This document shows positions 26,078-50,636 of a stretch of DNA of 63,718 nt, in pieces (the first letter of the stretch is position 1; each line of letters opens with the position of its first letter). The DNA is from Pseudomonadota bacterium (GTDB lineage Bacteria > Chloroflexota > Ktedonobacteria > Ktedonobacterales > JADMIN01). The stretch covers positions 1-63,718 of the forward strand of contig JAJPIU010000130.1 of NCBI GenBank assembly GCA_021324535.1, given 5' to 3'. The notes beneath the pieces are model-generated. The model saw nothing but the letters and a program-made list of their open reading frames with translations, was not told the origin of the DNA and ran no database searches. The translations under genes and the position numbers were made by a program.

Positions 26078-27472
26078 TCAAATGTTAGGAGCAGCGCCGA
26101 GATCGTTCAGGTCGCGCGCATACGTCTGAGCGGCAGGCAGCGCGACAAACGCGCCCACCAGCAGCGCGGGCAGACAGACGATCAACAGGGCAATGGCCTC
26201 GCGCTCGTGCAGCGCGGTGGAGATTGCGCCCACCACTCCAGGCGCCCACACATCGCCCAGCAGGTGTGCGAGGAGGTTAGCCACCGCGACCGCTGTCCCG
26301 CGCATGGCGGCTGGCGTGGTATCTTGCAGCATGGCAGCTAGCGGGCCTGATTGCAGATTCAGCGCGAAGACGGCGATGATTCCAGTGAGCAGGAAGACCG
26401 ACAGGGAATGGGTGATCAGCAGGAGCAGCAGAAACGGCGCGGCTAGCGCGAAGCTGACGCCAACTGCCAGCACACGCCCGCCCGTATAGCGCGCGCCCAG
26501 GCGATCCGCCAGCGTGCCGCCAAGCGCCGCGCCGGTCGCCCCGCCGACGACGATCAGCCCAGAAGTGATAGCCGCGCCGCTGGCCCCCAGATGAAACGGG
26601 CCACGTGGCGACCGCAGATAGATGGTGAGAAATGCGATGCAGGGCGTGATGACGATGAACGCAAGCGCCTGCAAGATGACGACCGCCCAGACCGTGCGGA
26701 TACGCAGGACACGCGCGAGATGATTCCGCAGGTTCGCAAGCCCGCCGCTGCTCCATTCGCTTGCAGGCGCCTCGTCTATGGATGGCCGCGCGGCGCGCGG
26801 CGGCTTATCTACAGGCGTTGCTGGCCCCTCGGCGACGAACCACATGGCGATGGCGAGTCCCAGCCCCGGCAGCCCTGCCACCAAAAAGGCGACGCGCCAG
26901 GCCAGGTGACTGGGCAGCCAGACGAAGAGGGCGGCGCTCAGCGCGTAGGCCAGCGCCACGCCCAGCAGTTGTCCCACCTGCCAGCGGCCCAGGATGCGCG
27001 CCCGCTTTTCCAGCCCGTAGTAGGCGCTGAGGAGCGCCGTGCCTGCCGGAAAGTAGCTGGCCTCGCCCACGCCCACCAGCGCCCGCGTGATGAACAACGA
27101 GGCGAAGTTCCCGGCGAAGGCGCTGGCTCCGCTGATCACGCTCCAAAAGGCGACGCCAACCGCGACGATCTTCGCGCGGGGGAAGCTCCAGTCGGCCAGC
27201 ATGCCCAACGGCAGCGCGGAGAGCGTATAGACCAGCAGAAACGCGCTGCTGAGCAGACCGATCTGGCTGTCCTTCAAGTGAAACTCACTTTTGAGCGTTG
27301 GCCCCACCGCAACGATGATCAGCCGGTCGAGGTAGTTGAGCGCATTGATGAGGAACATCAGCCAGAAAACACGCCGCGAGGTGTTGATGAGCGGTTGCCT
27401 CCAACCTCCACCATGCGCCCTGTTTTCTCTGCTCATTGTACTCACCGCGCCGCCACGCTTTTTGCTCGCCAT
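26078..27472 (-). CDS. MFS transporter (spinster-like)
   Basis: NALNYLDR, motif-A-like GMLAD, RALVGVGEA, GGTLADR; about 12 TM; start uncertain. Confidence 0.88.
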   Translation of the reverse strand: MASKKRGGAVSTMSRENRAHGGGWRQPLINTSRRVFWLMFLINALNYLDRLIIVAVGPTLKSEFHLKDSQIGLLSSAFLLVYTLSALPLGMLADWSFPRAKIVAVGVAFWSVISGASAFAGNFASLFITRALVGVGEASYFPAGTALLSAYYGLEKRARILGRWQVGQLLGVALAYALSAALFVWLPSHLAWRVAFLVAGLPGLGLAIAMWFVAEGPATPVDKPPRAARPSIDEAPASEWSSGGLANLRNHLARVLRIRTVWAVVILQALAFIVITPCIAFLTIYLRSPRGPFHLGASGAAITSGLIVVGGATGAALGGTLADRLGARYTGGRVLAVGVSFALAAPFLLLLLITHSLSVFLLTGIIAVFALNLQSGPLAAMLQDTTPAAMRGTAVAVANLLAHLLGDVWAPGVVGAISTALHEREAIALLIVCLPALLVGAFVALPAAQTYARDLNDLGAAPNI

Positions 27473-28895: not shown

Positions 28896-29294
28896 TTGGA
28901 GGCATACCTGCCAGGCGATGCAGTAGATGGCTGGGAGATGCTGGCCTCGAAGGTTGCTTTTCAGCAGCGCGTCACGGTCATGCGCGATAGGCTGCGCACG
29001 CCACGCGGCGCCGAGATGGACTACGTGTGGGTCGCCAGCGAGCTACAACCGCTTGGGAGGTTCTATCCTGCTCCTGGCATGATGTCCCATTGCGTGCATG
29101 TGTTTGTGGCCCAAGCGCCACAACCGGGCGAACCGGCCCACGACGAACAAGAGATCGTCGAGGTCGTCATGCTGCCGTGGGATGAGCTAGTGGAGCGTGT
29201 CATCCACGGCGACGAGGCATTGGATGTGACGTTGGCGTTTGCAGTATTGCGCTATGCTGCTCAGACTCAGGCGAACACTCAGGCGAAGTCGTAG
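28896..29294 (+). pseudogene. ADP-ribose pyrophosphatase-like Nudix hydrolase with internal deletion
   Basis: N-terminal RDRLRTPRG..YVWV joined directly to LGRFYPAPG..VHVFVA..DEQEIVEV; the GX5EX7REUXEEXGU box is absent. Confidence 0.6.
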
Positions 29295-29677: not shown

Positions 29678-29852
29678 GTGGTGTTTCTCCTCTATGTGTC
29701 TGTGTTGGCGCTACTGGCGCGCATCCAACTTCGGCGCCGTTCGTCAGGTTGTCAGCGCAGTATAGCACGTTGTCATGAACGTATGTACCAATTGGCTGGC
29801 ATAGCCATTGAGAAAATGGATCGCGCAACCGGCGCTCCAGCCTGCCTATAAG

Positions 29853-29895
29853 TTCCCCTCTCCCGTTGCGGCGGGAGAGGGGCCAGGGGTGGGGG
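29853..29895 (-). repeat. REP-like palindrome immediately after a stop codon
   Basis: minus strand TAG-CCCCCACCCCTGGCCCCTCTCCCGCCGCAACGGGAGAGGGGAA. Confidence 0.75.
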
Positions 29896-30522
29896 CTATG
29901 GCCCGCTGCCCGACGCAAACTTGGTTATTTGCCCGCTGATCATCCACTGCCCATGAACCAGCGTCAACGTGAAGGTAAAATCCATCAGATTGTGAGGCGA
30001 CGCCTTCTCAACGCTTCCATTGCTTTGTGTCTCGGTGAACGAAAGCCATATGATACCTTGCGCCGCCACACTGGCGGTTGCGCCAGAGACGTTGATCTGC
30101 GAAAATGTAAGCGTTCCGGCGCCTGCGTCCAGCACATGAAACGCGCCGCTCCGTTCGCTGGAGATGGCCTGTTGCGCCTGAGCCATCTCCGCAGTAAGCT
30201 GAGGGTTGGTATACCACTTGCCAAGCGTCTGTTGCGCGTTGGCGAGCATCTGCCGCTGGATGGCGTCACGCATAGGGCCGCCGTGATAGCTGGCTGGGGG
30301 TATCTGCGCCTGCCGCTCGGCGATCACCGCCTGCTGGCAGACCGTGCGAATACGTGGCGCCTCGCGGGCGTAGACCAGTTGCGCCTGGGCGGTTTGTACG
30401 ACGACGAACACACCCACCGCCAGCGCGATGACTATGGCAAGCGCCACGCCGCCCCACAGCAGCCGCCGCCTGGGCGCGCGACCGGGCGTTGTAGTGATAC
30501 TGCTGCCGCGTTCCTGCGACAT
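29896..30522 (-). CDS. membrane-anchored exported protein, possible NTF2-like C-terminal domain
   Basis: RRR followed by a hydrophobic helix; C-terminal FTFTLTLVHGQWMI strand pattern. Confidence 0.65.
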   Translation of the reverse strand: MSQERGSSITTTPGRAPRRRLLWGGVALAIVIALAVGVFVVVQTAQAQLVYAREAPRIRTVCQQAVIAERQAQIPPASYHGGPMRDAIQRQMLANAQQTLGKWYTNPQLTAEMAQAQQAISSERSGAFHVLDAGAGTLTFSQINVSGATASVAAQGIIWLSFTETQSNGSVEKASPHNLMDFTFTLTLVHGQWMISGQITKFASGSGP

Positions 30523-30570
30523 CCCTGACCTCTCTTCCGTTTTGCGCTCAACTGGATGGAATAGTACGCC

Positions 30571-31500
30571 ATGAACAAGAAGCCAACCAACCAATCACTC
30601 CCGTCCGCACCCCGTCCAGTATACCATACAGAGCAAGCGGAAACATCAATGCCAGAGAACGTACACACCATCACGCGGATGGAGCCGCAAGCGCGCCATC
30701 CCGACCGCTATAACATCTGGCTGGATGGCCGCTTTGCTTTTGGGATGGCGGGTTCGCTGGCGCTGGCCAAGAACTTGAGCGTTGGAAGCATGCTGAGCGA
30801 CGCCGAGATCGCGCGGTTGCGTGTGGCAGAGCAAGAGCAAACGCTGTTTGATGCGGCGCTGCGCTTCCTGGGCGCGCGTCCACGCAGCCGCGCCGAGGTG
30901 CGCCAGCGGCTCTTGCGCGCGAAGCCTTCACATTCCAGGCGCGCCACGACGCATGCTCCATCACGGCGTCAATTCATGCGCCAACGGACGCGACAAAAGA
31001 ACGACGTGGAGCACAGTGCAGATGATGAACTAGCGGGCGCCGAGGCAAACAGTGGGAATGATCTTATTGAGACTGGTGAGGAAATAGAAGGGATGGGCGA
31101 GGCGGACGCAAGGGAGGCGCGGCTGGCGCTGATCGAGCGTGTGCTCGACCGATTGGAGCAGCTTGGCCTGGTGAATGACGCAGCCTTTGCCAGCTTCTGG
31201 GCCGAGCAACGTGAACGGTTCAGTCCGCGCGCCGCCCGCGCCATCACCCAGGAGCTGCGCCAGCACGGCGTAGACCGCGCGATTGCCGCCGAGGCAAGCG
31301 ATCCCGACCGCGACGAAGAGCAGGCGTTGCTTGCCGCGCGCCAGCGTCTACGTAGTCTACATACCGATGACTACACGACTTTTCGCACGCGGCTCGGAAG
31401 CTTCTTGCAGCGGCGCGGCTTTGGCTACGAGGTCGCCGGGCGTGTCATCCGCCAGCTCTGGGCAGAAACACATGAAAGCATGCCCGACGATGAATGGTAG
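30571..31500 (+). CDS. recX: regulatory protein RecX
   Basis: RYNIWLDGRFAF, ALRFLGARPRSRAEVRQRL, GLVNDAAFA, ELRQHGV, FLQRRGF; start may be 30649. Confidence 0.9.
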   Translation: MNKKPTNQSLPSAPRPVYHTEQAETSMPENVHTITRMEPQARHPDRYNIWLDGRFAFGMAGSLALAKNLSVGSMLSDAEIARLRVAEQEQTLFDAALRFLGARPRSRAEVRQRLLRAKPSHSRRATTHAPSRRQFMRQRTRQKNDVEHSADDELAGAEANSGNDLIETGEEIEGMGEADAREARLALIERVLDRLEQLGLVNDAAFASFWAEQRERFSPRAARAITQELRQHGVDRAIAAEASDPDRDEEQALLAARQRLRSLHTDDYTTFRTRLGSFLQRRGFGYEVAGRVIRQLWAETHESMPDDEW

Positions 31501-31537
31501 AGAGGGGCGTCGGCTGACAGACCGCGCCCGTCTTCGC

Positions 31538-31580
31538 TTTCCCTCCTCTGCCGCAGCGAGGAAAGGGTCAGGGGTGGGGG
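31538..31580 (-). repeat. REP-like palindrome immediately after the deaD stop
   Basis: minus strand TAG-CCCCCACCCCTGACCCTTTCCTCGCTGCGGCAGAGGAGGGAAA. Confidence 0.7.
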
Positions 31581-33707
31581 CTATCGCCTATCCCGTGTGC
31601 GCCGCTCAGCAAAGGAACTATACGTGCGGCCTGCGCCTTTGCGTCCAGGCGCGCCGGTGGAACGCCGCCCACCAAATGAGCCGCGTGGGCTGCTGTGGCG
31701 ATCCTCCTCATCCTCGGATCGCTCCCACGGGCGTCCTCGCTTTGCCGGACGGTCGCGGTCACGATCACCACGTCCGTCGCGCGCGTCCTGCTGCCATTGC
31801 TCGTCGGGCCGGGCCAGGCTGGCACGCGGGTCACGCCCACGGATGGTGGTGCGGTTGAGCGCCGAGATGATGGCGCCTGCCTGCGCTTCGGGCGCCTCCA
31901 CAAACGCAAATGTATCGTAGAGATCAATATCGCCGATCTCATCTCCAGGCACACCCGCCTCGTTCGCGATGGCGCCCACAATATCAGCAGGGCGCACGCC
32001 GTCGCGTCGGCCCACACGCAAGAAGAGCCGCGCCATCGGTTGCCCGGCCCCACGGCGTTCGCCACGTTCACGGCGTCCGCGCGGCGCTTCGAAGCCTTCT
32101 GTGCGCCTGCCCGATGGCGCGGAGCTTGCCTCCTGGATGTCATCCCAGCGGCGGCGTTCGCGCCCCTCTCGTCCATCGCGGCTTTCACGGGTTTCCAGTT
32201 CCGGCGGAGCTGGCGGCTCCGGCTGCGCCTCATACCACGAGGTTCCATGTCCAGGACGACGCGCCTCTCGCGCCTGCGCCGCCATCTTAAAGGCCGCCGC
32301 CGCCAACTCGGCCGGCTCGCGGGTGTCGGCCAGGTCTTCTACCAGCGCCAGGAACGGATCGAGCTGCCCCTCGTCGAGGATTTCAAGCACGTCCTGCCGG
32401 AAGGTTGCCCGGCGACGCGCCGCTACATCGGCTGGCGTTGGCAGCCGCAGCCGTTCGAGTCGGCGGTGGATGGCGTGTTCGATGAACTGCAACTGGCGGC
32501 GTTCGCGCGGCGTGATCAACGTCAGCGCCTCGCCGCTCTGTCCGGCTCGGCCCGTCCGCCCAATGCGATGTACATACGACTCAGCGTCAACAGGCAGGTC
32601 ATAGTTGATGACATGGCTCACATCGGGGATGTCGAGTCCGCGCGCCGCCACATCGGTCGCCACCAGCAATTGCGTATGCCCGGCGCGGAAGCGTTCGAGC
32701 ACACGCTCACGCTGCGACTGGTTGATCTCGCCGTGGATGGCCTGCGCCAGATAGCCCATGCTATTGAGTTGTTCAGCCACCGTGTCGGCGTCGCGGCGTG
32801 TGCGGACAAAGATGATCGCTGACTCCGGCTCCTCCAGGTCGAGGATGCGCGCCAGCGCCTCAGGCTTGGCGTAGGCTGCCGTCTCGTAGTAGACCTGGCG
32901 TACCAGCGGCGCAACCGCCTCGCGTGCGTCAACGCTCAGTCGGACGGGGTCGTGTAAATACTGCTCGGCAAGCCGCGCAATGCGAGGCGGAATCGTCGCG
33001 GAGAAGAGCGCGCTCTGCCGCTCGCTGGGCAGCGCCGTCAGGATCGCCTCGATGTCTTCGATGAAGCCCATATTGAGCATCTCGTCGGCCTCATCGAGGA
33101 TGACGGTACGCACGCTGCTCAGGTCGAGCGTCTTGCGTTCCAGATGATCGAGCAACCGCCCTGGTGTGCCCACCACTACCTGCACGCCCCTCGCCAGCGC
33201 GCGAAACTGCCGCTCGTAGGGTTGGCCGCCGTAGATCGGGATCGTCACCACCTCGCGATACTTGCCAAAGGCATGGATCGCCTCCGCCACCTGAATCGCC
33301 AGTTCGCGGGTGGGCGTGACGATCAACGCCTGAGGCTTGAGGTCGCTCTCGTTCAGCCGCTCGATGATCGGCAAGCCATACGCCGCCGTCTTGCCCGTGC
33401 CGGTGGGCGCCTGGGCGATCACATCGCGCCCGGCGAGCATCGGCTCAATCGTCTGCAATTGAATGGGTGTCGGCGCGCCAAAGCCTAGATCGGCGATGGC
33501 TCTGAGCGTCAACTCTCCAAGCCCAAGCGCCGCAAACGCTTTGGCGCTCTCGTCCATCTCGGCGCTTACAGTATCGTTCGTTGTGGCACTCTCGGTCGCC
33601 GTCGTCGTTGTCGTCTCTTCGGCGGTCGCGCTGGCCGCCTGGCTGTCGCCTGCGTCGGGCGTGTTGATTTGTTCCGTTTGATTGAGTGAATGTCCCAAAT
33701 GTCCCAT
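31581..33707 (-). CDS. deaD: DEAD-box RNA helicase with DbpA RNA-binding domain (DeaD/CsdA)
   Basis: APTGTGKT, PTRELA, DEAD, SAT, ARGLD, HRIGRTGR, GRRDGVRPADIVGAIANE; start uncertain. Confidence 0.93.
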   Translation of the reverse strand: MGHLGHSLNQTEQINTPDAGDSQAASATAEETTTTTATESATTNDTVSAEMDESAKAFAALGLGELTLRAIADLGFGAPTPIQLQTIEPMLAGRDVIAQAPTGTGKTAAYGLPIIERLNESDLKPQALIVTPTRELAIQVAEAIHAFGKYREVVTIPIYGGQPYERQFRALARGVQVVVGTPGRLLDHLERKTLDLSSVRTVILDEADEMLNMGFIEDIEAILTALPSERQSALFSATIPPRIARLAEQYLHDPVRLSVDAREAVAPLVRQVYYETAAYAKPEALARILDLEEPESAIIFVRTRRDADTVAEQLNSMGYLAQAIHGEINQSQRERVLERFRAGHTQLLVATDVAARGLDIPDVSHVINYDLPVDAESYVHRIGRTGRAGQSGEALTLITPRERRQLQFIEHAIHRRLERLRLPTPADVAARRRATFRQDVLEILDEGQLDPFLALVEDLADTREPAELAAAAFKMAAQAREARRPGHGTSWYEAQPEPPAPPELETRESRDGREGRERRRWDDIQEASSAPSGRRTEGFEAPRGRRERGERRGAGQPMARLFLRVGRRDGVRPADIVGAIANEAGVPGDEIGDIDLYDTFAFVEAPEAQAGAIISALNRTTIRGRDPRASLARPDEQWQQDARDGRGDRDRDRPAKRGRPWERSEDEEDRHSSPRGSFGGRRSTGAPGRKGAGRTYSSFAERRTRDRR

Positions 33708-43149: not shown

Positions 43150-44655
43150 CTACTCATGGGCGGCTGTCGCCTCTGTCGCCCCTGGCGTATCCGGGGTACT
43201 GGCTGTATCTGGCGTGTCCGGCGCGAAGATATGCAATGGGGCAGACGCCACCCGTGTGAAGACGGGAGTATGCGCGCATACTTCGCCATCGAGCGTCACA
43301 TCCAGCGGCGTCGGTTCATCGGGTGTCTCGATGACCACCGCGTGGGCGCGGAACCGGGAAATCCCCGGCGCGATCAACTCGCCATGCGCATCGGCCAGCT
43401 CCGCAAAGGCCGCCCGCTCAGCCTCTTCTTCATGCAGGGCTCCCTTGCCACCCTGGCGCCCAACGAGGGGCAGTCTCCCCGCCCATCGGCCCAACCTCGT
43501 CAGCAGGTGATCAAGCGTCGCGCGCAGGCTGCCTGGATCCGGCGCCTCGACCAACAGGAAATCAAGCAGGCCATCCGAACCATCAGCGCCGGGGACATTG
43601 AATCGAAGCGCGCCTCCAAAAACCGGCTGGTTGATGATGGCTAGTTGCAACGCATGGCAATCGATCACATGCGTCTTGCCACGCCCCGGCGGCGCCCACT
43701 GCTTGCCCACGCTATAGCCCTGGTATCCCTGCAAGCGGAGGATCAGGCGGATCGAACGGGCATGCTGCAACGCCTCCATTGCCGAAGCGGCGTAGGTCAG
43801 CGCGCCCCACTGGCGTCGGCGTTCGGCGCTGGTGGCCAGCCGCGCAAACTCGACGTTCAGACCCAGCGTCAGCGCATGCAGAAAATATTTTTGATCGCTC
43901 GGCGGCGCGTTCACCTCCCCACCTTTTGTCGTTCCCTCAGCGACAACAGCGCCATGCTTGTTGGTATGCTTGAGCCAATTGCGCAAGGCGTGGCGTTCAC
44001 GCCGCTCGAAGTGAACAATCCGTTGGCGTAGCTTGCTCCAGAATAGCCGCCGTCTCACATCGGTCTGTTCATTCGCCAGTTCGTCGCCTTCGCCCAACCG
44101 GAGTTGTTCATTGAGCGCCAATGCGCCAGTGGGAATGACCTGTCCCACATCGCTGGGAACTGCCTTGCCCCTGGCAATGATCTGCGCCGCCAGCGCCACA
44201 TCCATTGGAATACCCAGTGAGCGCGCGACATCATTCGATGTCCCCAGCGGCAGGATGCCCAGCGGCAACCCGGCCTGCATGGCGAGTGTCGCTGCTGCGC
44301 CCACTGTGCCATCGCCGCCTGCCGCCACCACCGCGACACACCTCCGTTCGCGCCAGAGCGCAATCTGGCGAGCGGCGAACCCTGGCTGCCCTACCTCAAT
44401 CGTCAGCGCGCTGCATGCCGCCTCAATGCCGGCCTGCGCAAGCGCCTGGTGTGTTGTCTCCTTTGCAGCAGTTATCTCGGCCTCGCTATGAGCCGTGTGA
44501 TGAACCGGTTCGCCGCTGATCTCGCCCCGCGCGAACCGCCCCGCGTGTGGACTGATGAGCAGAGCGACCGGCCCACATGGTTGAGCGACTGTGAGAGGCG
44601 CATGACGTGGCGAGCGGTCATATTCCCTTGAAGGCGTGGCGTCTGCGTTGCGCAT
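43150..44655 (-). CDS. diacylglycerol/lipid kinase family protein
   Basis: SPHAG, AGGDGTV, LPLGTSNDVAR, LDGE. Confidence 0.87.
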   Translation of the reverse strand: MRNADATPSREYDRSPRHAPLTVAQPCGPVALLISPHAGRFARGEISGEPVHHTAHSEAEITAAKETTHQALAQAGIEAACSALTIEVGQPGFAARQIALWRERRCVAVVAAGGDGTVGAAATLAMQAGLPLGILPLGTSNDVARSLGIPMDVALAAQIIARGKAVPSDVGQVIPTGALALNEQLRLGEGDELANEQTDVRRRLFWSKLRQRIVHFERRERHALRNWLKHTNKHGAVVAEGTTKGGEVNAPPSDQKYFLHALTLGLNVEFARLATSAERRRQWGALTYAASAMEALQHARSIRLILRLQGYQGYSVGKQWAPPGRGKTHVIDCHALQLAIINQPVFGGALRFNVPGADGSDGLLDFLLVEAPDPGSLRATLDHLLTRLGRWAGRLPLVGRQGGKGALHEEEAERAAFAELADAHGELIAPGISRFRAHAVVIETPDEPTPLDVTLDGEVCAHTPVFTRVASAPLHIFAPDTPDTASTPDTPGATEATAAHE

Positions 44656-44797
44656 ATGCGGTATCCTAGTCTGTTGTTTCTACCGTTGTCCTGTCGTTCT
44701 GCCGGTTTGTGTGGGAATACTTTTCTCATCACTGTATCACATGTATCACACAAAAATGGGAAACCATCAATAATCTTGTCAAAACGTAGCGAAACGC

Positions 44798-44826
44798 TTG
44801 ACGATCTGACGCCACTGTGTTATGGT
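44798..44826 (+). promoter_or_regulatory. sigma70-type promoter for the ORF at 44885
   Basis: TTGACG-17 nt-TATGGT with extended TG; direct repeat TGTATCACA x2 at 44733-44750 upstream. Confidence 0.55.
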
Positions 44827-44884
44827 ATGCGCGACAAACGAGAGACCAATGCGCCCCTGTGGGGGAAGGAGCGATAAGTAGCAT

Positions 44885-45115
44885 ATGGCGCAGCCGGTAA
44901 CTGATAAGGAGCTGTTGCGGCTCCAGATACAAGCCTATGAGTTTTACGCCGGTTTGATTGGCCGTGCGGTGGTCAGTGGCGCGCATGATGCAAAGATGCC
45001 ACGCTGGGATGAGCAACGCGCCATAGAATATCGCGAGCTGGCCGAGCAACTTCGCCGACAATTGGCTGAACTTGAGGCAACGTCGCCTGCTGAGACCACG
45101 TCTGGTCAATCATAA
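44885..45115 (+). CDS. small helical hypothetical protein
   Basis: AAGGAG RBS and promoter; helix-turn-coiled-coil-like pattern. Confidence 0.6.
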   Translation: MAQPVTDKELLRLQIQAYEFYAGLIGRAVVSGAHDAKMPRWDEQRAIEYRELAEQLRRQLAELEATSPAETTSGQS

Positions 45116-45225
45116 ATCATTTCAATAGCTTTTAGCCATGTCTCGTCTCACGTTTATATCGCGTAGCGCGTGACGATGTGATCATGATCAGCCCTGCGTG
45201 TTCGAGTGGGGCAGGGAGCGTGGGG

Positions 45226-46308
45226 ATGGCAGCGCGTTTCGTCCTGACGAGCAGACTCAGTAACATCATACAAATGATCACGCTCTCACGCCAGAGCGGC
45301 ATCCTCCGCGTGATACGTGGTCAAGGCGCCTTGCGCGAGATGGGGCAGATACGCTTCGTGCGTGGCGAGCCAGTCTCGGCGTTGCTTGGCGAAACGACCG
45401 GCGGCGGCGCCTTGAACGTCCTGGCTAACTGGGGTGAGTGCGCCTATGCGTTCGATGAAACCTTCGGCGCCGACGACACAAGCGATCCATCCATGGATGC
45501 GCCCGGTGGCATGGGATCGTTTGGCGCCGACTCCCCTCCACCGGCTTATCCCCCTTCATCGTTACCAAACGGCGCCTCATCCTCATCATGGCCTTCGTCC
45601 TATGGCTACATTCAGGTACCGCCCGGCGCTCATTCTGGTATGCCGCCCGCAGCGACTCCATCCTATCCCTATCCGGATGATAACGCCCGTGGATCGCCTG
45701 GCTATGGCGGAGGATATGGCGGAGGATATGGCCCATACGAGGGTGGCTACACACCCAGACCAACCGAGACGGGGCAGAATGGTTATGGCGCCCCTCCCGG
45801 TTATCACCCATCGAGCATGCCGACTCCGGATCGCTATGGGGGAGTGGGGGCCGAACGACAAGAACGCGCCCGGCAGAATCCTAACTATTCGCGCCCGTTG
45901 CCCAACCTACCGAATCTGCAAAATCTGCCGAACCTGCCAAATCTTGGCCCGCTAGGTGGGCCATCGTATCCGGGTGAGACAGGGTCGCCTACGCCCGCAA
46001 CGCCGTCTCCTCTTCCATCTATGCCATCGGTCTCATCTTATGGGCCGCCATCCCTACCAGGATCGGGCCAGGCGTCAGCGCACCCGACCCATACCCTACA
46101 GCCGGAGATGCTGGCGGCTGTTCCCGTGCGAACGGAGATCGCGACGAATATCGAACAGTTACCGCTCGACCGCCGTGAGCGCATGGTGTTGTTGTTGGTG
46201 GACGGGCAGCGAAGCATCTCCGATTTGATTCGCCTGACACGCCGCAGTGAGCAAGAGTTCTACGCGGTCTTGAACCATCTGCGGATGCTTGGCCTGGTGC
46301 GAATGTAA
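45226..46308 (+). CDS. DUF4388 (PATAN-like) domain protein with P/G/S/Y-rich linker and C-terminal winged helix
   Basis: LSNIIQMITLSRQSGILRV..GQIRFVRGEPVSA..ALNVLANW..YAF; C-terminal LLLVDGQRSISDL..L..LGLV. Confidence 0.75.
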   Translation: MAARFVLTSRLSNIIQMITLSRQSGILRVIRGQGALREMGQIRFVRGEPVSALLGETTGGGALNVLANWGECAYAFDETFGADDTSDPSMDAPGGMGSFGADSPPPAYPPSSLPNGASSSSWPSSYGYIQVPPGAHSGMPPAATPSYPYPDDNARGSPGYGGGYGGGYGPYEGGYTPRPTETGQNGYGAPPGYHPSSMPTPDRYGGVGAERQERARQNPNYSRPLPNLPNLQNLPNLPNLGPLGGPSYPGETGSPTPATPSPLPSMPSVSSYGPPSLPGSGQASAHPTHTLQPEMLAAVPVRTEIATNIEQLPLDRRERMVLLLVDGQRSISDLIRLTRRSEQEFYAVLNHLRMLGLVRM

Positions 46309-46557
46309 GACGATAGAGGCGACAGAGGCGATACTTGTACCGGTTCTCTATACACAATCGCCGATGAACGGTACAATAGTCGTACCATTGTCTACGGCTG
46401 GCGTTTGTTTGCGCCGAATACGTCGGTTCATTCGTTCTTTTTGTGAGAGCAGAAAGGGCTATACGGCGTCAGGCGGTCATGTCATAGAGAAAGCAGCGCT
46501 GGTAGCGCAGTGCAGCCAGGGGGCAGTGCAGCCAACCCAGGCATGCAAGAGAGGAAG

Positions 46558-48498
46558 ATGGGTATGGGTCGAAGAGGGTTGCGACTGGGTATTCGCGCGC
46601 AACTGACCCTTGTCGTGTTGCTAGGCGCGATTCTAAGCACCGCCGCGACACTGTTTATCGCCAATAGCGCCATCCAAACGTATGCGCTTCAACAGGCGCA
46701 GGCGCAGGAGCAAGGCAACGCCAAGATCGCGTTGTTGGTTCTGCGCACGGAGTATGGGCAAAATATTTCCATAAGCCCTGACGATCACTTGGTGGTTGAC
46801 TCCCCTGCGGTGGGGCAAGACCTTTCCAATGCGACAGCGCAAAACGACTACGGCAAGGTGGTGCTCAATGATAACAACGACTATGTGGATCAGGTACAGC
46901 AATTGATCGGCGGCGAGGTCAGCATTTATCAATGCGCCAGCCCCGATGGCACGCCGACCCCATGTGACCGCATCGCCACCACGTTCCGTGCGCCCAACTC
47001 AGGGTTCACAGGCGCACGCGAAACCGGTTCGCAGTTTCTTCTCGAAACCGCCATCGCTCAGCATATGGGGCTTGGCCCCAACCAGACGCCGCACGAATGG
47101 TCAGGGGTTGATACGCTCGACGGCAAGCAATATTACACCGATTATCAGCCACTCTTCGATCCACAGAGCAACGTGATTGGTGTCCTCTCTGTTGGGGTGC
47201 CGCTCGATACGGTGACAAACTTCCAGCAGACGACGACGATTGAGTTGTTGCTGTTGGGTCTGATCATCATGATCGCCGGTATCATCTTTGCCGTCCTCTT
47301 CGCTTCGGCCATCGTCAACACGCTTCAGCAGGCCGCACGCCAGGTGAGCGCCGCCTCAGCCCGCTTGAACGCCATCGCCGGACAGCAGGCTGGTGGCGCG
47401 CAACAGCAGGTCTGGGCGGTCAACTCGATCAACAAGGCGCTGCAAAACTTCGCCGAGATGACGCGCGATGTCTCGCGGCGCACCGACCAGCTCTCGCAGA
47501 TGGGCAACCAGGTCATTCAACGGCGCGTCGAGATTTCCCCCGTGCAGATTGATTCGATCCTGGCCTATATGACCCGCTCGGTGCGCGACATTAGCGTGGC
47601 CAGCCAGCAAGAGGCCGCGCAATATGAGCGCATGACCAGCGCTATGCAGGCGGTTATCGAGATTGCCGAGCAGGTGGCGGGCAACTCCGATCAGGTGACT
47701 GAGAGTGTGGAGCGCCTGGATCTGGTTATCGCCCAGTTGCAGCAGCTCGTCGGCGTGAGCCGCTCCAAGCAAGTGGTGGATGACGCCGAGGCGGCAAACG
47801 CCGAACTGGAAGCGCAGATGAACCTGAACGATATGCGTGGCGCACTCAGCGACCAGCCACGGCTGATGGGCGCGCGCGCCGCCGCATCTTCGGCCAGCAT
47901 GCGCAACGGCATGACCGGCTCCATGAATATGGGCCAAATGGGCAATATGGGCGCAGCGCAGATGCGCGGTTTGCCCCCTGGTCAAATAGGGCAGATGGGG
48001 CAAATGCAACTTGGCCAGTTTGGCGGCGTAGGGCAGGGATCGCAAGGAAACATGGGCCAGATGGAGACGGCGCAGTCCACCGGGAGGCTCAATATGCGTG
48101 GCGGCTATGGCGTGCCGCAGAACCAGCGTTACCCAATGAATGGCCAGCAAATGGGCGGCCAGGCGGGCGGGATGGGCCTTCCGCCGCTTGGCGCGAACCA
48201 GGGCGGCCAGGGCATGCGTGTCGGCGCGGGCATGGGCGTCGGCAGCAGCGGCAGCATGAATGGGCAGATGGGGCGTATGGGCCCATCTGGGCCGATAGGG
48301 CCGATGGGCGGCCAGGAACCCGGCCCAATGGGACGTATGCCATTTGACGACGATGGCGCCTACGGCCACTATGATCGCCCTGACCCCTACGACCGCTCCG
48401 GGTATCTCGGTTCGGGTGGCCCTGGCGGCGGGCAGGGGATGTCTGGCCCGTCGGCTCCCGGTGGGCCGGGCGCGCCACGCCGCCGCATGCGCCGGTAA
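46558..48498 (+). CDS. Cache-domain transmembrane receptor with truncated MCP-like coiled coil and G/M/Q-rich tail
   Basis: TM1; Cache-like RIATT..G.RETG..YYTDYQPLFD...VIGVLSVG; TM2; methylation-helix-like arms; low-complexity C-terminus. Confidence 0.75.
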   Translation: MGMGRRGLRLGIRAQLTLVVLLGAILSTAATLFIANSAIQTYALQQAQAQEQGNAKIALLVLRTEYGQNISISPDDHLVVDSPAVGQDLSNATAQNDYGKVVLNDNNDYVDQVQQLIGGEVSIYQCASPDGTPTPCDRIATTFRAPNSGFTGARETGSQFLLETAIAQHMGLGPNQTPHEWSGVDTLDGKQYYTDYQPLFDPQSNVIGVLSVGVPLDTVTNFQQTTTIELLLLGLIIMIAGIIFAVLFASAIVNTLQQAARQVSAASARLNAIAGQQAGGAQQQVWAVNSINKALQNFAEMTRDVSRRTDQLSQMGNQVIQRRVEISPVQIDSILAYMTRSVRDISVASQQEAAQYERMTSAMQAVIEIAEQVAGNSDQVTESVERLDLVIAQLQQLVGVSRSKQVVDDAEAANAELEAQMNLNDMRGALSDQPRLMGARAAASSASMRNGMTGSMNMGQMGNMGAAQMRGLPPGQIGQMGQMQLGQFGGVGQGSQGNMGQMETAQSTGRLNMRGGYGVPQNQRYPMNGQQMGGQAGGMGLPPLGANQGGQGMRVGAGMGVGSSGSMNGQMGRMGPSGPIGPMGGQEPGPMGRMPFDDDGAYGHYDRPDPYDRSGYLGSGGPGGGQGMSGPSAPGGPGAPRRRMRR

Positions 48499-48552
48499 AC
48501 CAAATCACCAGGGCGCCATCGCTAGATGCCCTGCCCGCTCGGTGATTTCACT

Positions 48553-48592
48553 ACGAACTCGTCGGCGCCCGCTGGCGAGTTCGTGCTATACT
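48553..48592 (+). promoter_or_regulatory. hairpin followed by an extended -10 element
   Basis: ACGAACTCG...CGAGTTCGT inverted repeat, then TG-C-TATACT at 48584-48592. Confidence 0.45.
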
Positions 48593-48681
48593 GTGTGTAT
48601 TCTTTTCCGTCCTTTTTGCGTCTTGACTCTTGAGTCATGTGCTCACAGCGACATCCCAGTGGTGAAAGGTGGATAGCGTAG

Positions 48682-49119
48682 GTGTTCGAAGACGTCATTT
48701 CACAGGTGCCACTCTTCCAAAGCCTCACAAAGCGTGAGCTACAAGTGTTGGCCAATAACTGCCGCGAGCGCGAGTATCCCGCCGGGTCAGTGCTTCTGCG
48801 GCAGGGGGAGACCGGCGTTGGCCTGTTTATCATTACCAGCGGGCATGTGAATGTCACCCAGACCACGCCTGATGGCGAGACGCGCGAGCTTGGTTCTTTT
48901 GGGCGCGGCGACGTGCTGGGGGAGATGTCGTTGCTCGATGATCAACCCCGCACGGCGACCGTTGTTGCCAGCGAACCGACAACTGCTCTTGTCATTCCCG
49001 TCTGGGATTTCCGGGCGGCGCTACGTGAGTCGCCGGATATTGGCATCAAGCTGCTGACGGTGCTGAGCCGTCGTCTGCGTCGCGCTGAGGCGCAAACGCA
49101 CGAGCAAGCGCACAGCTAA
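48682..49119 (+). CDS. stand-alone cyclic nucleotide-binding domain protein
   Basis: LRQGE, LFIITSG, LGEMSLLDDQPRTATV phosphate-binding cassette; no HTH. Confidence 0.9.
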   Translation: MFEDVISQVPLFQSLTKRELQVLANNCREREYPAGSVLLRQGETGVGLFIITSGHVNVTQTTPDGETRELGSFGRGDVLGEMSLLDDQPRTATVVASEPTTALVIPVWDFRAALRESPDIGIKLLTVLSRRLRRAEAQTHEQAHS

Positions 49120-49298
49120 TTTTCGAATGCGCTTCAATCGCCAGCATATGTTGGCGTTGGTCTACAACAGCCTACAACCCCTGCTTCCAGGCGCAACTGA
49201 TCCAGAACGCGCGTGGAGCGGGGGTTGCGCGCGTTCCAAAGCATCTCACCCGATTCCCGGAATCGAACGGGGACGCGGGCAAGTGAGGAGTCAAATGT

Positions 49299-50636
49299 AT
49301 GGCAAAGTCAGCGGTCAAGGAGCCAAAAACTCTCTCCACATCGCAACCAAAGCGACCGGAAGGCGATGTGATCGCCGCACTCGAGGCGCGTGGATTGATC
49401 AGCCAGATAACCGAGAGCAGCCTGCGCGAGGCTGCGCTGAATACACGCCTGACGGTCTACTGCGGGTTTGATCCGACGAAACCGAGCTTGCAGATCGGCA
49501 ATCTCGTGCCGGTGATCGTGCTGGCGCACTTCCAGCGTATGGGCCATCAGCCTATCCTGGTGGTGGGCGGCGGCACCGGTATGATCGGCGATCCCAGTGG
49601 CAAAGACAGCGAACGTGTGCTCCAGACGACCGAGCAAATACTGGCGAACGCCGAGCGTGTGCGCCAGCAGTTGTCGGGCTATCTCTCGTTCGAAGGGCCT
49701 AACGCGGCGATCATGGTGAATAATTACGATTGGCTGAACGCAATCTCATTGATCGAGTATCTGCGCGATGTGGGCAAGCATTTCAGTGTCAACGCGATGG
49801 TGGCGAAGGAGTCGGTCAGGGAGCGGTTCGAGAACCGAGAGCAGGGCATCTCCTACACAGAGTTTAGCTACATGATCCTGCAAGCGATTGACTACCGCCA
49901 TTTGTTTGACGTGTATGGATGCACGGTGCAGGTGGGGGGGAACGATCAATGGGGCAATCTCCTGTCGGGCGTTGATCTCATCCGCCGCACACGCGACGCA
50001 CACGTACACGCGCTGACTGCGCCGCTGATCACCTCGGCCACCGGCGCAAAGCTGGGCAAGAGCGAGAAAGGCGCGCTCTTCCTCGATCCGGAGATGACCA
50101 CGCCGTACGAGCTCTACCAATACTGGATCAACACCGACGACCGCGACGTGGGGCGTTACCTGCGCGTCTTCACGTTCCTGCCACTGGAAGAGATCGCCAA
50201 CCTGGAACGTGAACAGGCTGAGAACCCATCCAGCCGTGTGGCGCAGCGGCGGTTGGCGTTTGAGATTACACGGCTTGTGCATGGTGAGGCGGTGGCGCGC
50301 GGGGTGGCTGGCGTCTCACATGTGTTGTTTGGCGGTGGGATCGCCGACCTGACGCCCGATACGCTGCCTTACCTGGCGAGCGTTGTGCCCACCACGCCAA
50401 TTGCGGCGCAAGCCCTAGCCGCCGGTCTGCCACTGGTAGAGGCGTTGGTCACGGTGGGCGCGCAGCCATCACGCGGCGCGGCGCGGCGGCTGATCCAGCA
50501 GGGAGGACTCTACATCAATGAGCAACGCTGCGCCGACCCCGAACGCATATTGACGGCTGATGACGCGCTGTTTGGGCGCGCCATCCTCATCCGCATGGGC
50601 AAGAATAAGTATCATCTGCTGCTGGCGGAGGAGTGA
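49299..50636 (+). CDS. tyrS: tyrosine--tRNA ligase
   Basis: YCGFDPT, GDPSG, EFSYMILQAID, QVGGNDQWGN, KLGKS, C-terminal S4 domain. Confidence 0.96.
   Translation: MAKSAVKEPKTLSTSQPKRPEGDVIAALEARGLISQITESSLREAALNTRLTVYCGFDPTKPSLQIGNLVPVIVLAHFQRMGHQPILVVGGGTGMIGDPSGKDSERVLQTTEQILANAERVRQQLSGYLSFEGPNAAIMVNNYDWLNAISLIEYLRDVGKHFSVNAMVAKESVRERFENREQGISYTEFSYMILQAIDYRHLFDVYGCTVQVGGNDQWGNLLSGVDLIRRTRDAHVHALTAPLITSATGAKLGKSEKGALFLDPEMTTPYELYQYWINTDDRDVGRYLRVFTFLPLEEIANLEREQAENPSSRVAQRRLAFEITRLVHGEAVARGVAGVSHVLFGGGIADLTPDTLPYLASVVPTTPIAAQALAAGLPLVEALVTVGAQPSRGAARRLIQQGGLYINEQRCADPERILTADDALFGRAILIRMGKNKYHLLLAEE

Follow-up and report, generated by a model that had tools for sequence, protein, structure and literature searches.

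The 63,718-nucleotide (nt) stretch analysed here, hereafter the window (contig JAJPIU010000130.1 of assembly GCA_021324535.1, labelled C151 in our genome-wide searches), encodes a membrane receptor at 46558..48498 on the forward strand. This receptor combines a Cache sensor with a short cytoplasmic helical hairpin, which resembles the membrane-proximal part of methyl-accepting chemotaxis proteins (MCPs), and a long low-complexity tail. Upstream of it lies a gene for a protein with a PATAN (DUF4388)-like N-terminal part and a winged-helix-like C-terminal domain (PATAN-wHTH). On balance, the sequence data favour a reading in which the receptor is the sensing component of a lineage-specific pair of receptor and partner, with the hairpin signalling to the PATAN-wHTH protein.

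The receptor reading frame is open from 46510 to 48498 (+), and translation from the ATG at 46558 yields 646 residues. All strings quoted in the initial annotation of this locus are found in the translation (QQAGGAQQQVWAV, RRVEISPVQIDS, ISVASQQEAAQYERMTSAMQAV...LQQLVG, MGQMGNMG, GQMGQMQLGQ, GPMGRM and the terminal RRRMRR). The true start is probably the next ATG, at 46564, since the third residue, M3, at which the family alignment begins, is nearly invariant, the database copy of the protein has 644 residues, and a purine-rich sequence (agagaggaag) immediately precedes the ATG at 46558, leaving a spacer of six bases to 46564. A conserved, basic N-terminal stub and the first transmembrane (TM) helix (residues 1-37, 46558..46668 (+), mean pairwise identity 0.70) are followed by the extracytoplasmic sensor (residues 40-222, 46675..47223 (+)), which was assigned to sCache_3_3 by Pfam, PDB profile search and Foldseek. 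In the Pfam scan, sCache_3_3 (PF17202) matched residues 103-223 (E 1.2e-13, 51.7 bits versus a cut-off of 28.8) and the related Cache_3-Cache_2 model was matched as well, while neither HAMP nor MCPsignal was among the 11 families found at E <= 1. A hydropathy scan revealed two TM segments (about residues 14-37 and 228-254), and the second (47239..47319 (+)) is continuous with a cytoplasmic helix according to hydropathy and AlphaFold2.

The AlphaFold2 model, a monomer built on a 61-sequence alignment (mean pLDDT 77.6), has a Cache fold followed by an unbroken helix (residues 216-321), which a six-residue loop (322-327) connects to a return helix (328-398). The model thus predicts a hairpin of about 150 residues that is joined directly to TM2 and leaves no room for a HAMP domain. 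Its descending helix (residues 255-321, 47320..47520 (+)) carries the invariant QQxxGxxQQVWA, and its counterpart in alignments is the beginning of the MCP signalling domain. The turn RRVEIS (residues 322-327, 47521..47538 (+)) stands in place of the MCP tip; R323 and E325 are conserved in it, as is P328 just after it. The ascending helix (residues 328-398, 47539..47751 (+)) is matched by the final ~71 residues of that MCP domain. The initial annotation had described TM-Cache-TM followed by two such helices at 47320-47755, which corresponds to residues 255-399, with no recognisable HAMP, and this description agrees with the Pfam scan, the hydropathy scan and the AlphaFold2 model. The remainder of the protein is a G/M/Q/P/R-rich tail of 241 residues that ends in RRRMRR (47773..48498 (+), including the stop codon). 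An NCBIfam scan of the receptor gave nothing useful. Kinship with histidine kinases was rejected: the NCBIfam matches to CreC and DcuS covered only Cache-TM2 and were far below the cut-offs, and the hairpin module contains no invariant or nearly invariant His.

The architecture is not peculiar to the window. A word-seeded search of 5.8 billion proteins gave 162 relatives at E <= 1e-3, and the 120 homologues listed among them comprise 361-690 amino acids. Where source names were given, the matches listed were mostly called 'cache domain-containing protein' of Ktedonobacterales and two were called 'methyl-accepting chemotaxis protein'. Precomputed PF00015 annotations were found for none of these 120 of the 162 homologues. 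In a Pfam scan of 61 aligned members, all 61 contained sCache_3_3, and MCPsignal was not among the 25 families listed, the least frequent of which had 3 members, so that at most 2 of the 61 can match it. That is, the loss of the tip proposed for the window protein holds across the family, and a strain-specific deletion was rejected since the short hairpin is found family-wide. The module alignment is nearly gap-free and strongly conserved, with the invariant blocks QQxxGxxQQVWA, RxxQLxxMGxQ, R323, TRSxRxIS and RMxxAMQAVxExAxQV. With a mean pairwise identity of 0.77 (versus 0.51 for the sensor), the module is the most conserved region of the receptor.

Among 41 related genomes, 40 contained some match. 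A full-length sCache orthologue (E <= 1.5e-68) was present in 32, namely 22 of the 25 that belong to the window's family and all 10 of two further families; in one more genome it is split into two fragments at contig ends. In a fourth family (six genomes), matches, where present, were weaker and of the paralogue type. Each of the 41 genomes encodes at least one canonical MCP. When 301 genomes of the phylum were searched, the module was detected in 28, all within four families of one order, and in none of the 267 genomes outside this order. One protein, P0082 (63% identical over the ordered part), is labelled in its source as stemming from a metagenome-assembled genome of a Nitrososphaerota archaeon. 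This label is probably a binning error, because the family is otherwise confined to one bacterial order.

We then turn to the partner gene (45226..46308 (+)). Its reading frame is open from a GTG at 45178, and its orthologues begin at a MAAR/MAAQ position that is equivalent to 45226 here. The PATAN/DUF4388-like part (about 45226-45480) is followed by a P/G/Y-rich linker of variable length and by the winged-helix-like domain (about 46123-46305). DUF4388 was matched (E <= 1) in 26 of 28 partner orthologues, within their N-terminal ~85 residues and with a best E of 8e-7, and the nearest Atlas clusters of the partner are PatA_N clusters (score 0.97). The last ~60 residues follow the pattern LPLDRRERMVLLLVDGxR...DLxRLTRR...LGL and weakly match winged-helix families (PF0610-like_N in 14, HTH_9 in 8 and HTH_27 in 6 of the 28 orthologues).

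PATAN-wHTH gene, receptor gene and a gene for a cyclic nucleotide monophosphate (cNMP)-binding protein follow each other in a conserved order on one strand. In the window's family, the PATAN-wHTH gene was found upstream of the receptor at 18 of 19 loci and the cNMP gene downstream at 17 of 19. At the two loci without the cNMP gene (L011 and L015) the contig ends before its position, and the locus without a PATAN-wHTH match (L007) starts at contig base 1, about 1.3 kb upstream of the receptor. In two more distant families, whose receptors are only 33-50% identical, all 10 loci had both neighbours; the intergenic distances there are short or negative, and in L062, for instance, receptor and cNMP gene overlap by 4 nt. 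The linkage to the DUF4388 gene, to which the initial annotation had drawn attention, is thus conserved (18/19 and 10/10 loci).

The strongest argument for a functional partnership comes from a second pair. At 12 of 15 loci, a paralogue that joins the module to a dCache sensor is immediately preceded by a PATAN-wHTH gene of its own, likewise a paralogue and in the same orientation; the loci without an adjacent one are those of the window genome, L075 and L078. In a tree of 39 PATAN-wHTH proteins, the 11 dCache partners were separated from the 28 sCache partners with a Shimodaira-Hasegawa-like support of 1.0 (branch 0.89). The window genome encodes exactly two module proteins and two PATAN-wHTH proteins, and its unlinked second PATAN-wHTH protein (contig C117) falls in the dCache-partner clade. 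The PATAN-wHTH profile was matched in 34 of the 301 phylum genomes, all of them in the order that has the module, and in 0 of 267 outside it. Receptor and neighbour appear to have been duplicated together and both pairs to have been kept, which is the pattern of cognate signalling pairs. Because of this paired duplication and retention, the PATAN-wHTH protein is probably the real output partner of the receptor, as far as genomic context can indicate. It is the PATAN-wHTH gene, rather than the tail, that almost always accompanies the module.

The same comparison places the downstream gene (48682..49119 (+), 145 amino acids) differently. It encodes a single cNMP_binding domain (PF00027, E 1.9e-26, 92.3 bits versus a cut-off of 27.5, profile positions 1-88 of 89). 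We rejected it as a member of the core pair: at dCache pairs it was found in 1 of 13 loci only, on the opposite strand, and it is therefore specific to the sCache operon. We treat as leads only the Atlas clusters in which PatA_N is fused to cNMP_binding (75 members) or to HTH_24; they suggest that the three operon products may work together.

The tip of MCPs is the site of CheA/CheW binding and of trimer-of-dimer formation. The initial annotation had likened the two receptor helices to the descending and ascending methylation helices of MCPs, and this likeness is borne out by profile-profile comparison with shuffle controls and by BLASTP. In a narrower comparison of 61 orthologues with 32 MCP signalling domains from related genomes, the C-terminal helix (330-402) covered the final 73 positions of the 289-position MCP profile (score 39.0, probability 74%) and the N-terminal helix aligned to MCP positions 10-66 (score 28.9); no reversal scored above 22.4, and none of 30 column shuffles above 19.0. 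For a broader comparison, 145 modules were combined into one profile (Neff 3.6) and set against 32 MCP signalling domains of the order by hhalign. Here, the C-terminal helix aligned to the last 71 MCP residues (score 46.3, probability 89.5%) and the N-terminal helix from MCP position 10 onward (score 41.4, probability 80.8%), with 28.6 for the reversed MCP profile and at most 33.4 for 40 heptad-block shuffles.

In addition, a phmmer search of the module against 1.84 billion representatives gave 50 matches at E <= 1e-3, among them one true MCP, P0163 (E 7.9e-4; own MCPsignal E 8.5e-29). BLASTP aligned receptor residues 300-388 to residues 333-427 of P0163 (E 2e-4) and receptor residues 257-359 to its residues 140-244 (E 0.002), the latter including the common stretch LNAIAxQQAGGxQQQ. 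Residues 245-332 of P0163, including the tip region, remained unmatched by BLASTP, and MCP positions ~67-215 of 289 had no counterpart in the profile alignment of the module. In MCPs, the flexible bundle and the CheA/CheW-binding tip take up ~90-150 residues for which the receptor has no counterpart. Structural look-alikes in the ESM Atlas were MCPs (TM-score 0.84-0.88, normalised by query), which weighs little because any long helical hairpin matches likewise.

The module is also borne on several sensors. It is joined to sCache_3_3, dCache_1 and 4HB_MCP_1/TarH domains, all of them classic chemoreceptor inputs. dCache_1 precedes it in P0155, P0156, P0160, P0162, P0164 and the second copy of the window genome (contig C132), the four-helix 4HB_MCP_1/TarH sensor precedes it in P0143, and in P0148 it follows just two TM helices. 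Among 50 representatives of 51-697 amino acids inspected for fused or longer forms, no enzymatic domain was found by Pfam in the 12 scanned. Taken together, the module is quite likely derived from that part of an MCP cytoplasmic domain which lies next to the membrane. The receptor itself is not an MCP by defining features, since it neither matches the domain model nor has the tip. Describing it as a tipless MCP-like receptor expresses resemblance and probable descent, not membership.

Several results weigh against this reading of hairpin and partner. The relationship to MCPs is remote: Pfam gave no MCPsignal match for the receptor at E <= 1, a PDB profile search found no MCP chain at E <= 10 and only the Cache sensors 8py0 and 8py1, BLASTP against the two MCPs of the genome itself reached only E 0.045 and 0.099, and a plain hidden Markov model of the module ranked the MCP of the che cluster 11th (E = 6) in the six-frame translation of the genome. 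One of the 40 heptad-block shuffles accounts for the score of 33.4. With regard to the partner, the DUF4388 match of the window protein itself (E 2.6e-4, 21.4 bits, profile positions 9-46 of 122) is below the 25-bit cut-off, and the winged-helix assignment comes from weak matches with a best E of 5e-4. In the window genome, the dCache paralogue lies on C132 and the second PATAN-wHTH gene on C117, so that these two are not adjacent. In one family, which has dCache-type modules only, PATAN-wHTH genes have expanded to as many as 9 matches per genome and outnumber the module genes (1-3), so that the pairing is not one-to-one there. Finally, the compared genomes are all kin, and the synteny partly reflects shared descent.

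The failure of all sequence-to-profile methods would fit convergence, in which a coiled-coil hairpin of independent origin came to resemble MCP helices through its Q/A/S-rich heptads. Homology is based on profile-profile comparison and one marginal phmmer match among 1.84 billion representatives, one shuffle came as high as 33.4, and 17 of 61 members weakly matched an unrelated helical family, DUF948 (best E 0.0066); matches to this and other helical families remained weak and below cut-off in the receptor and in the members. However, both halves of the hairpin are collinear with the correct MCP ends in two independent comparisons, and their scores exceed those of all 40 and 30 shuffles and of the reversals. 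The module shares LNAIAxQQAGGxQQQ with a bona fide MCP, it is borne on three sensor types typical of chemoreceptors, and a C-terminal low-complexity tail is common to the MCPs of the order. We therefore regard convergence as improbable and retain descent from an MCP.

A receptor of such descent could still be chemosensory. The absence of che genes from the window, as reported in the initial annotation, was confirmed by a six-frame search of the whole genome: MCPsignal matches were confined to contigs C193 and C95, and CheW matches to C193 and C231. The che cluster on C193 comprises a CheW gene at 29192, an MCP of 673 amino acids with an intact tip (29795-31816) and a CheA-like open reading frame (ORF) at ~35259. 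A full-length DUF4388/PATAN gene (26393-26863, E 5.2e-18) lies directly upstream of this cluster. The second canonical MCP is encoded on C95. CheR is present in the genome as a 1153-amino-acid fusion on a contig other than that of the receptor operon. The genome also holds three class III cyclase domains and one clear T2SSE-type ATPase. As a side observation, PATAN proteins flank both canonical and tipless receptors in this genome.

The missing tip suggests that the receptor is uncoupled from chemotaxis. Conversely, it might act as a modulator of chemosensory signalling, as a methylation sink for CheR/CheB, or be coupled to the che system through its PATAN neighbour. In favour of such a role, the che cluster has its own full-length PATAN gene upstream, CheR is present, the hairpin corresponds to the methylation-helix region and carries invariant Q276/Q277 and Q283/Q284, and the MCP of the che cluster has a G/M-containing tail as well. 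PATAN regulators furthermore work in Che-like pathways of cyanobacteria, according to the excerpt available of bioRxiv 10.1101/2021.06.11.447907. Nevertheless, we consider a chemosensory role hardly probable. The partner has a winged-helix instead of a receiver domain, the CheR gene is a fusion on another contig, and the receptor operon was not located beside che genes in any of 29 loci examined (1.5-5 kb flanks). Without a tip, moreover, the receptor has none of the known sites for CheA/CheW or for trimers of dimers.

The initial annotation had tentatively assigned the output to the tail, which it had described as a stretch of more than 200 residues dominated by G, M, Q, N and P and ending in RRRMRR. 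This stretch is present, with 241 residues. Residues 406-646 consist of 24.9% G, 11.6% M, 9.5% Q, 8.3% P, 7.5% R and 0% K, with a net charge of +3. We rejected a frame artefact, an idea raised by the GC content of 0.63-0.71 over the tail and by an overlapping antisense ORF of 337 amino acids, because the tail spans 241 open codons, homologues bear tails of the same composition, and the C-terminus matches that of P0004, the closest homologue. The antisense ORF (47356-48369 (-)), which is rich in Ala, His, Arg and Leu, is most likely not a gene but a consequence of the repetitive, G+C-rich sequence of the coding strand.

To survey tails across the family, we used the 135 of 164 stored proteins that have the AMQA motif of the C-terminal helix (a set that includes the window protein twice and some contig-end fragments). 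At least 60 residues followed the module in 129 of the 135 (median 214, maximum 286), with a pooled composition of 22.4% G, 12.6% P, 9.7% M, 9.5% A, 7.4% R and 0.3% K. Tail sequence was conserved among close relatives only, with the last ~30 residues almost exactly kept in P0004. Short motifs recurred, namely DWRxPPxP (54/129) and PxGRMx[F/Y] (21/129, including GPMGRMPF in the window protein). The tail contains 9-nt tandem repeats at 47929-47952 and 48260-48309, which encode MGx units. Tandem repeats of 9-18 nt occur in the partner linker too (45703-45732 and 45910-45944, encoding YGGG and PNLQNL). Judged by these repeats, receptor tail and partner linker appear to grow by slippage.

Among 3,416 crude ORFs of the genome (at least 150 amino acids, greedy and non-overlapping, some surely spurious), 297 contained a polar low-complexity stretch of at least 80 amino acids. 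The receptor tail is the most Met-rich of these 297 segments (11% versus 2.1% in the proteome). A strict filter (G >= 18%, M >= 7%) was passed by 6 of the 3,416 ORFs, one of which is the MCP of the che cluster. The only other ORFs with G/M-rich low-complexity segments lie at C6:14113-14979, C65:1310-4438, C78:9291-10901 and C98:3316-4152. These encode putative regulatory or membrane proteins, and the N-terminal ~55 residues of one of the four presumably resemble a CsrA-type regulator. Most of the 32 canonical MCPs of the order have G/P/Q/Y/N-rich tails of ~90-370 residues, while five have tails of at most 30. Many of the canonical MCP tails have aromatic ends (...PDRY, ...GESY, ...DLY, ...QPYE), and MCP tails may represent a very long tether to a C-terminal docking motif. 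Modules without a tail were found in P0143, P0148 and the dCache paralogues of L059, L060, L073 and L074 (509-522 amino acids).

The tail is real, its composition is maintained with an unusual Met bias, and a long disordered tail is a habit of this lineage, which fits descent from a tail-bearing MCP. According to the initial annotation, the receptor may signal or cluster through a condensate-forming or prion-like tail, a model in which the hairpin would be a mere spacer. The tail's presence in 129 of 135 family proteins with stable composition speaks for such a function, as do its Met content, the rarity of such segments under the strict G/M filter and the recurrent short motifs. However, tail sequence is not conserved beyond close relatives, and the 9-nt slippage repeats are typical of weakly constrained sequence. 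Tip-bearing MCPs of the order are mostly tailed as well, which argues that the tail is no substitute for the tip. Since receptors of the lineage commonly have tails and the module occurs elsewhere without one, the tail does not appear to be the output. The hairpin, in turn, is the most conserved region, unlike a passive spacer. Signalling through the tail thus found no support and is in our view a poor candidate; tail-driven condensation as output is unlikely on the sequence evidence. We return to the hairpin and the PATAN-wHTH protein as the probable output route.

With regard to the input, the closest solved structures to the sensor are the formate-bound 8py0 and 8py1 (profile E 2.1e-5 and 1.5e-4), and Foldseek aligned 8py0 with E 4e-8, a TM-score of 0.82 (normalised by target) and 22% identity. 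In the portion available of PMC11804620, the formate contacts in 8py0 are T100, R111 and Y160, together with the pocket-closing F175. In the HMM alignment these fall on S122, R138, Y196 and position 211 of the receptor. S122, R138 and Y196 were each kept in 59 of 61 members. Position 211, by contrast, is variable, which counts against a firm assignment of formate as the ligand: it is F in 17, Y in 13, S in 12, A in 11 and C in 3 of the 61 members, with Ser in the window protein. A small carboxylate, which need not be formate, would be the likeliest ligand given the conserved pocket residues. C126 and C136 are invariant and bracket an extra loop, which fits an extracytoplasmic disulfide.

Further observations concern the surroundings of the operon and of the second pair. 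An intergenic region of ~570 nt with lower G+C (44656-45225, 0.50-0.55) separates the PATAN-wHTH gene from a divergent DAGK/YegS-like gene and contains two promoter-like sites on the + strand (44745 and 44798). A promoter and terminator scan of the operon region gave only consensus-level sites, which do not decide on co-transcription, and an Rfam scan of 44400-49400 gave no match at E <= 0.1. On C117 (5025-8133, L079), the second PATAN-wHTH gene is followed by a gene for a largely disordered, acidic protein of 635 amino acids. This protein had no Pfam match and is not a module receptor. In two genomes of a neighbouring family (L059 and L060), sCache operon and dCache pair lie only ~2.6 kb apart and are convergent in both.

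From these elements we propose how the pair might work. The receptor would form a homodimer in which the hairpins build a short four-helix bundle. Binding of a small carboxylate would shift TM2 and the packing of the bundle, and the bundle or its conserved turn would then bind or release the cognate PATAN-wHTH protein, which relays the signal. The onward step could be DNA binding via the winged helix or, as for cyanobacterial PATAN domains, control of a machine. The cNMP-binding protein might add a second-messenger input to the sCache system. The tail would be a flexible, fast-evolving extension inherited from the tailed MCPs of the order and not the primary output; its role may be that of a tether or spacer, and short motifs may lie within it. 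A bolder version is tempting, yet rather doubtful as a whole: an order-confined pathway in which a receptor of MCP origin that shed its tip holds or releases the PATAN-wHTH protein at the membrane, with a relay to transcription or a machine that is free of phosphotransfer, gating of the sCache system by cNMP, and the Met-rich tail as a clustering element sensitive to redox state or crowding.

Chemoreceptors are textbook sensors whose output depends entirely on the conserved tip. Our findings suggest that the upper part of this scaffold has been re-used as a stand-alone output module with another partner. PATAN (DUF4388) proteins outside cyanobacteria thereby gain a concrete candidate for an upstream receptor, and 'output-less' Cache sensors gain a candidate downstream partner. 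Since the receptor is encoded in nearly all members of three of the order's four families and was found in 0 of 267 other phylum genomes searched, it likely controls something characteristic of these bacteria. A full-text literature search, with subscription-only literature outside its reach, returned no description of such a family.

Parallels to known systems exist at several levels. Af1503-type receptors are output-less membrane sensors paired with a separate adaptor, and PtsG sequesters the regulator Mlc at the membrane. The window system follows the same logic, in that a non-enzymatic sensor is encoded beside an adaptor or regulator as presumed output, but it has an MCP-derived hairpin instead of HAMP and a different partner architecture, and the protein families are unrelated.

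MCPs (PF00015, including the two of the genome on C193 and C95) share with the receptor the layout of TM helix, Cache sensor, TM helix and antiparallel hairpin, and those of the order also share the long low-complexity C-terminal tail. The first ~60 and the last ~70 residues of the receptor hairpin align to the first and last parts of their signalling domain. In contrast, the hairpin of the order's MCPs comprises ~290 residues versus ~150 in the receptor, which lacks HAMP, and the tip block of the genome's own MCPs (QTNLLALNAAI...GRGFA) has no counterpart. The receptor also fails the Pfam model and is linked to a PATAN-wHTH gene instead of che genes.

The formate sensors 8PY0/8PY1, as far as the available part of PMC11804620 describes them, are the best profile and fold matches to the sensor, and their Ser/Thr, Arg and Tyr are kept. 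They differ in the low identity (~22%), in the extra C126/C136 loop of the receptor, in the output module and in the pocket-closing Phe, which is Ser in the window receptor.

For the partner, the closest parallel is found in cyanobacteria. According to the available excerpt of bioRxiv 10.1101/2021.06.11.447907, PATAN (there equated with DUF4388/PF14332) occurs in response regulators that bind the type IV pilus motor in Synechocystis, and such regulators act in Che-like pathways. PATAN proteins, among them PatA-type regulators such as PixG and PixE, serve as protein-binding adaptors downstream of MCP-like receptors, and the neighbour of the window receptor has a PATAN N-terminal part as well. 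However, in this neighbour the PATAN part is followed by a low-complexity linker and a winged-helix-like domain instead of a receiver domain, and unlike these cyanobacterial systems, the window system as we read it would involve no CheA-type kinase.

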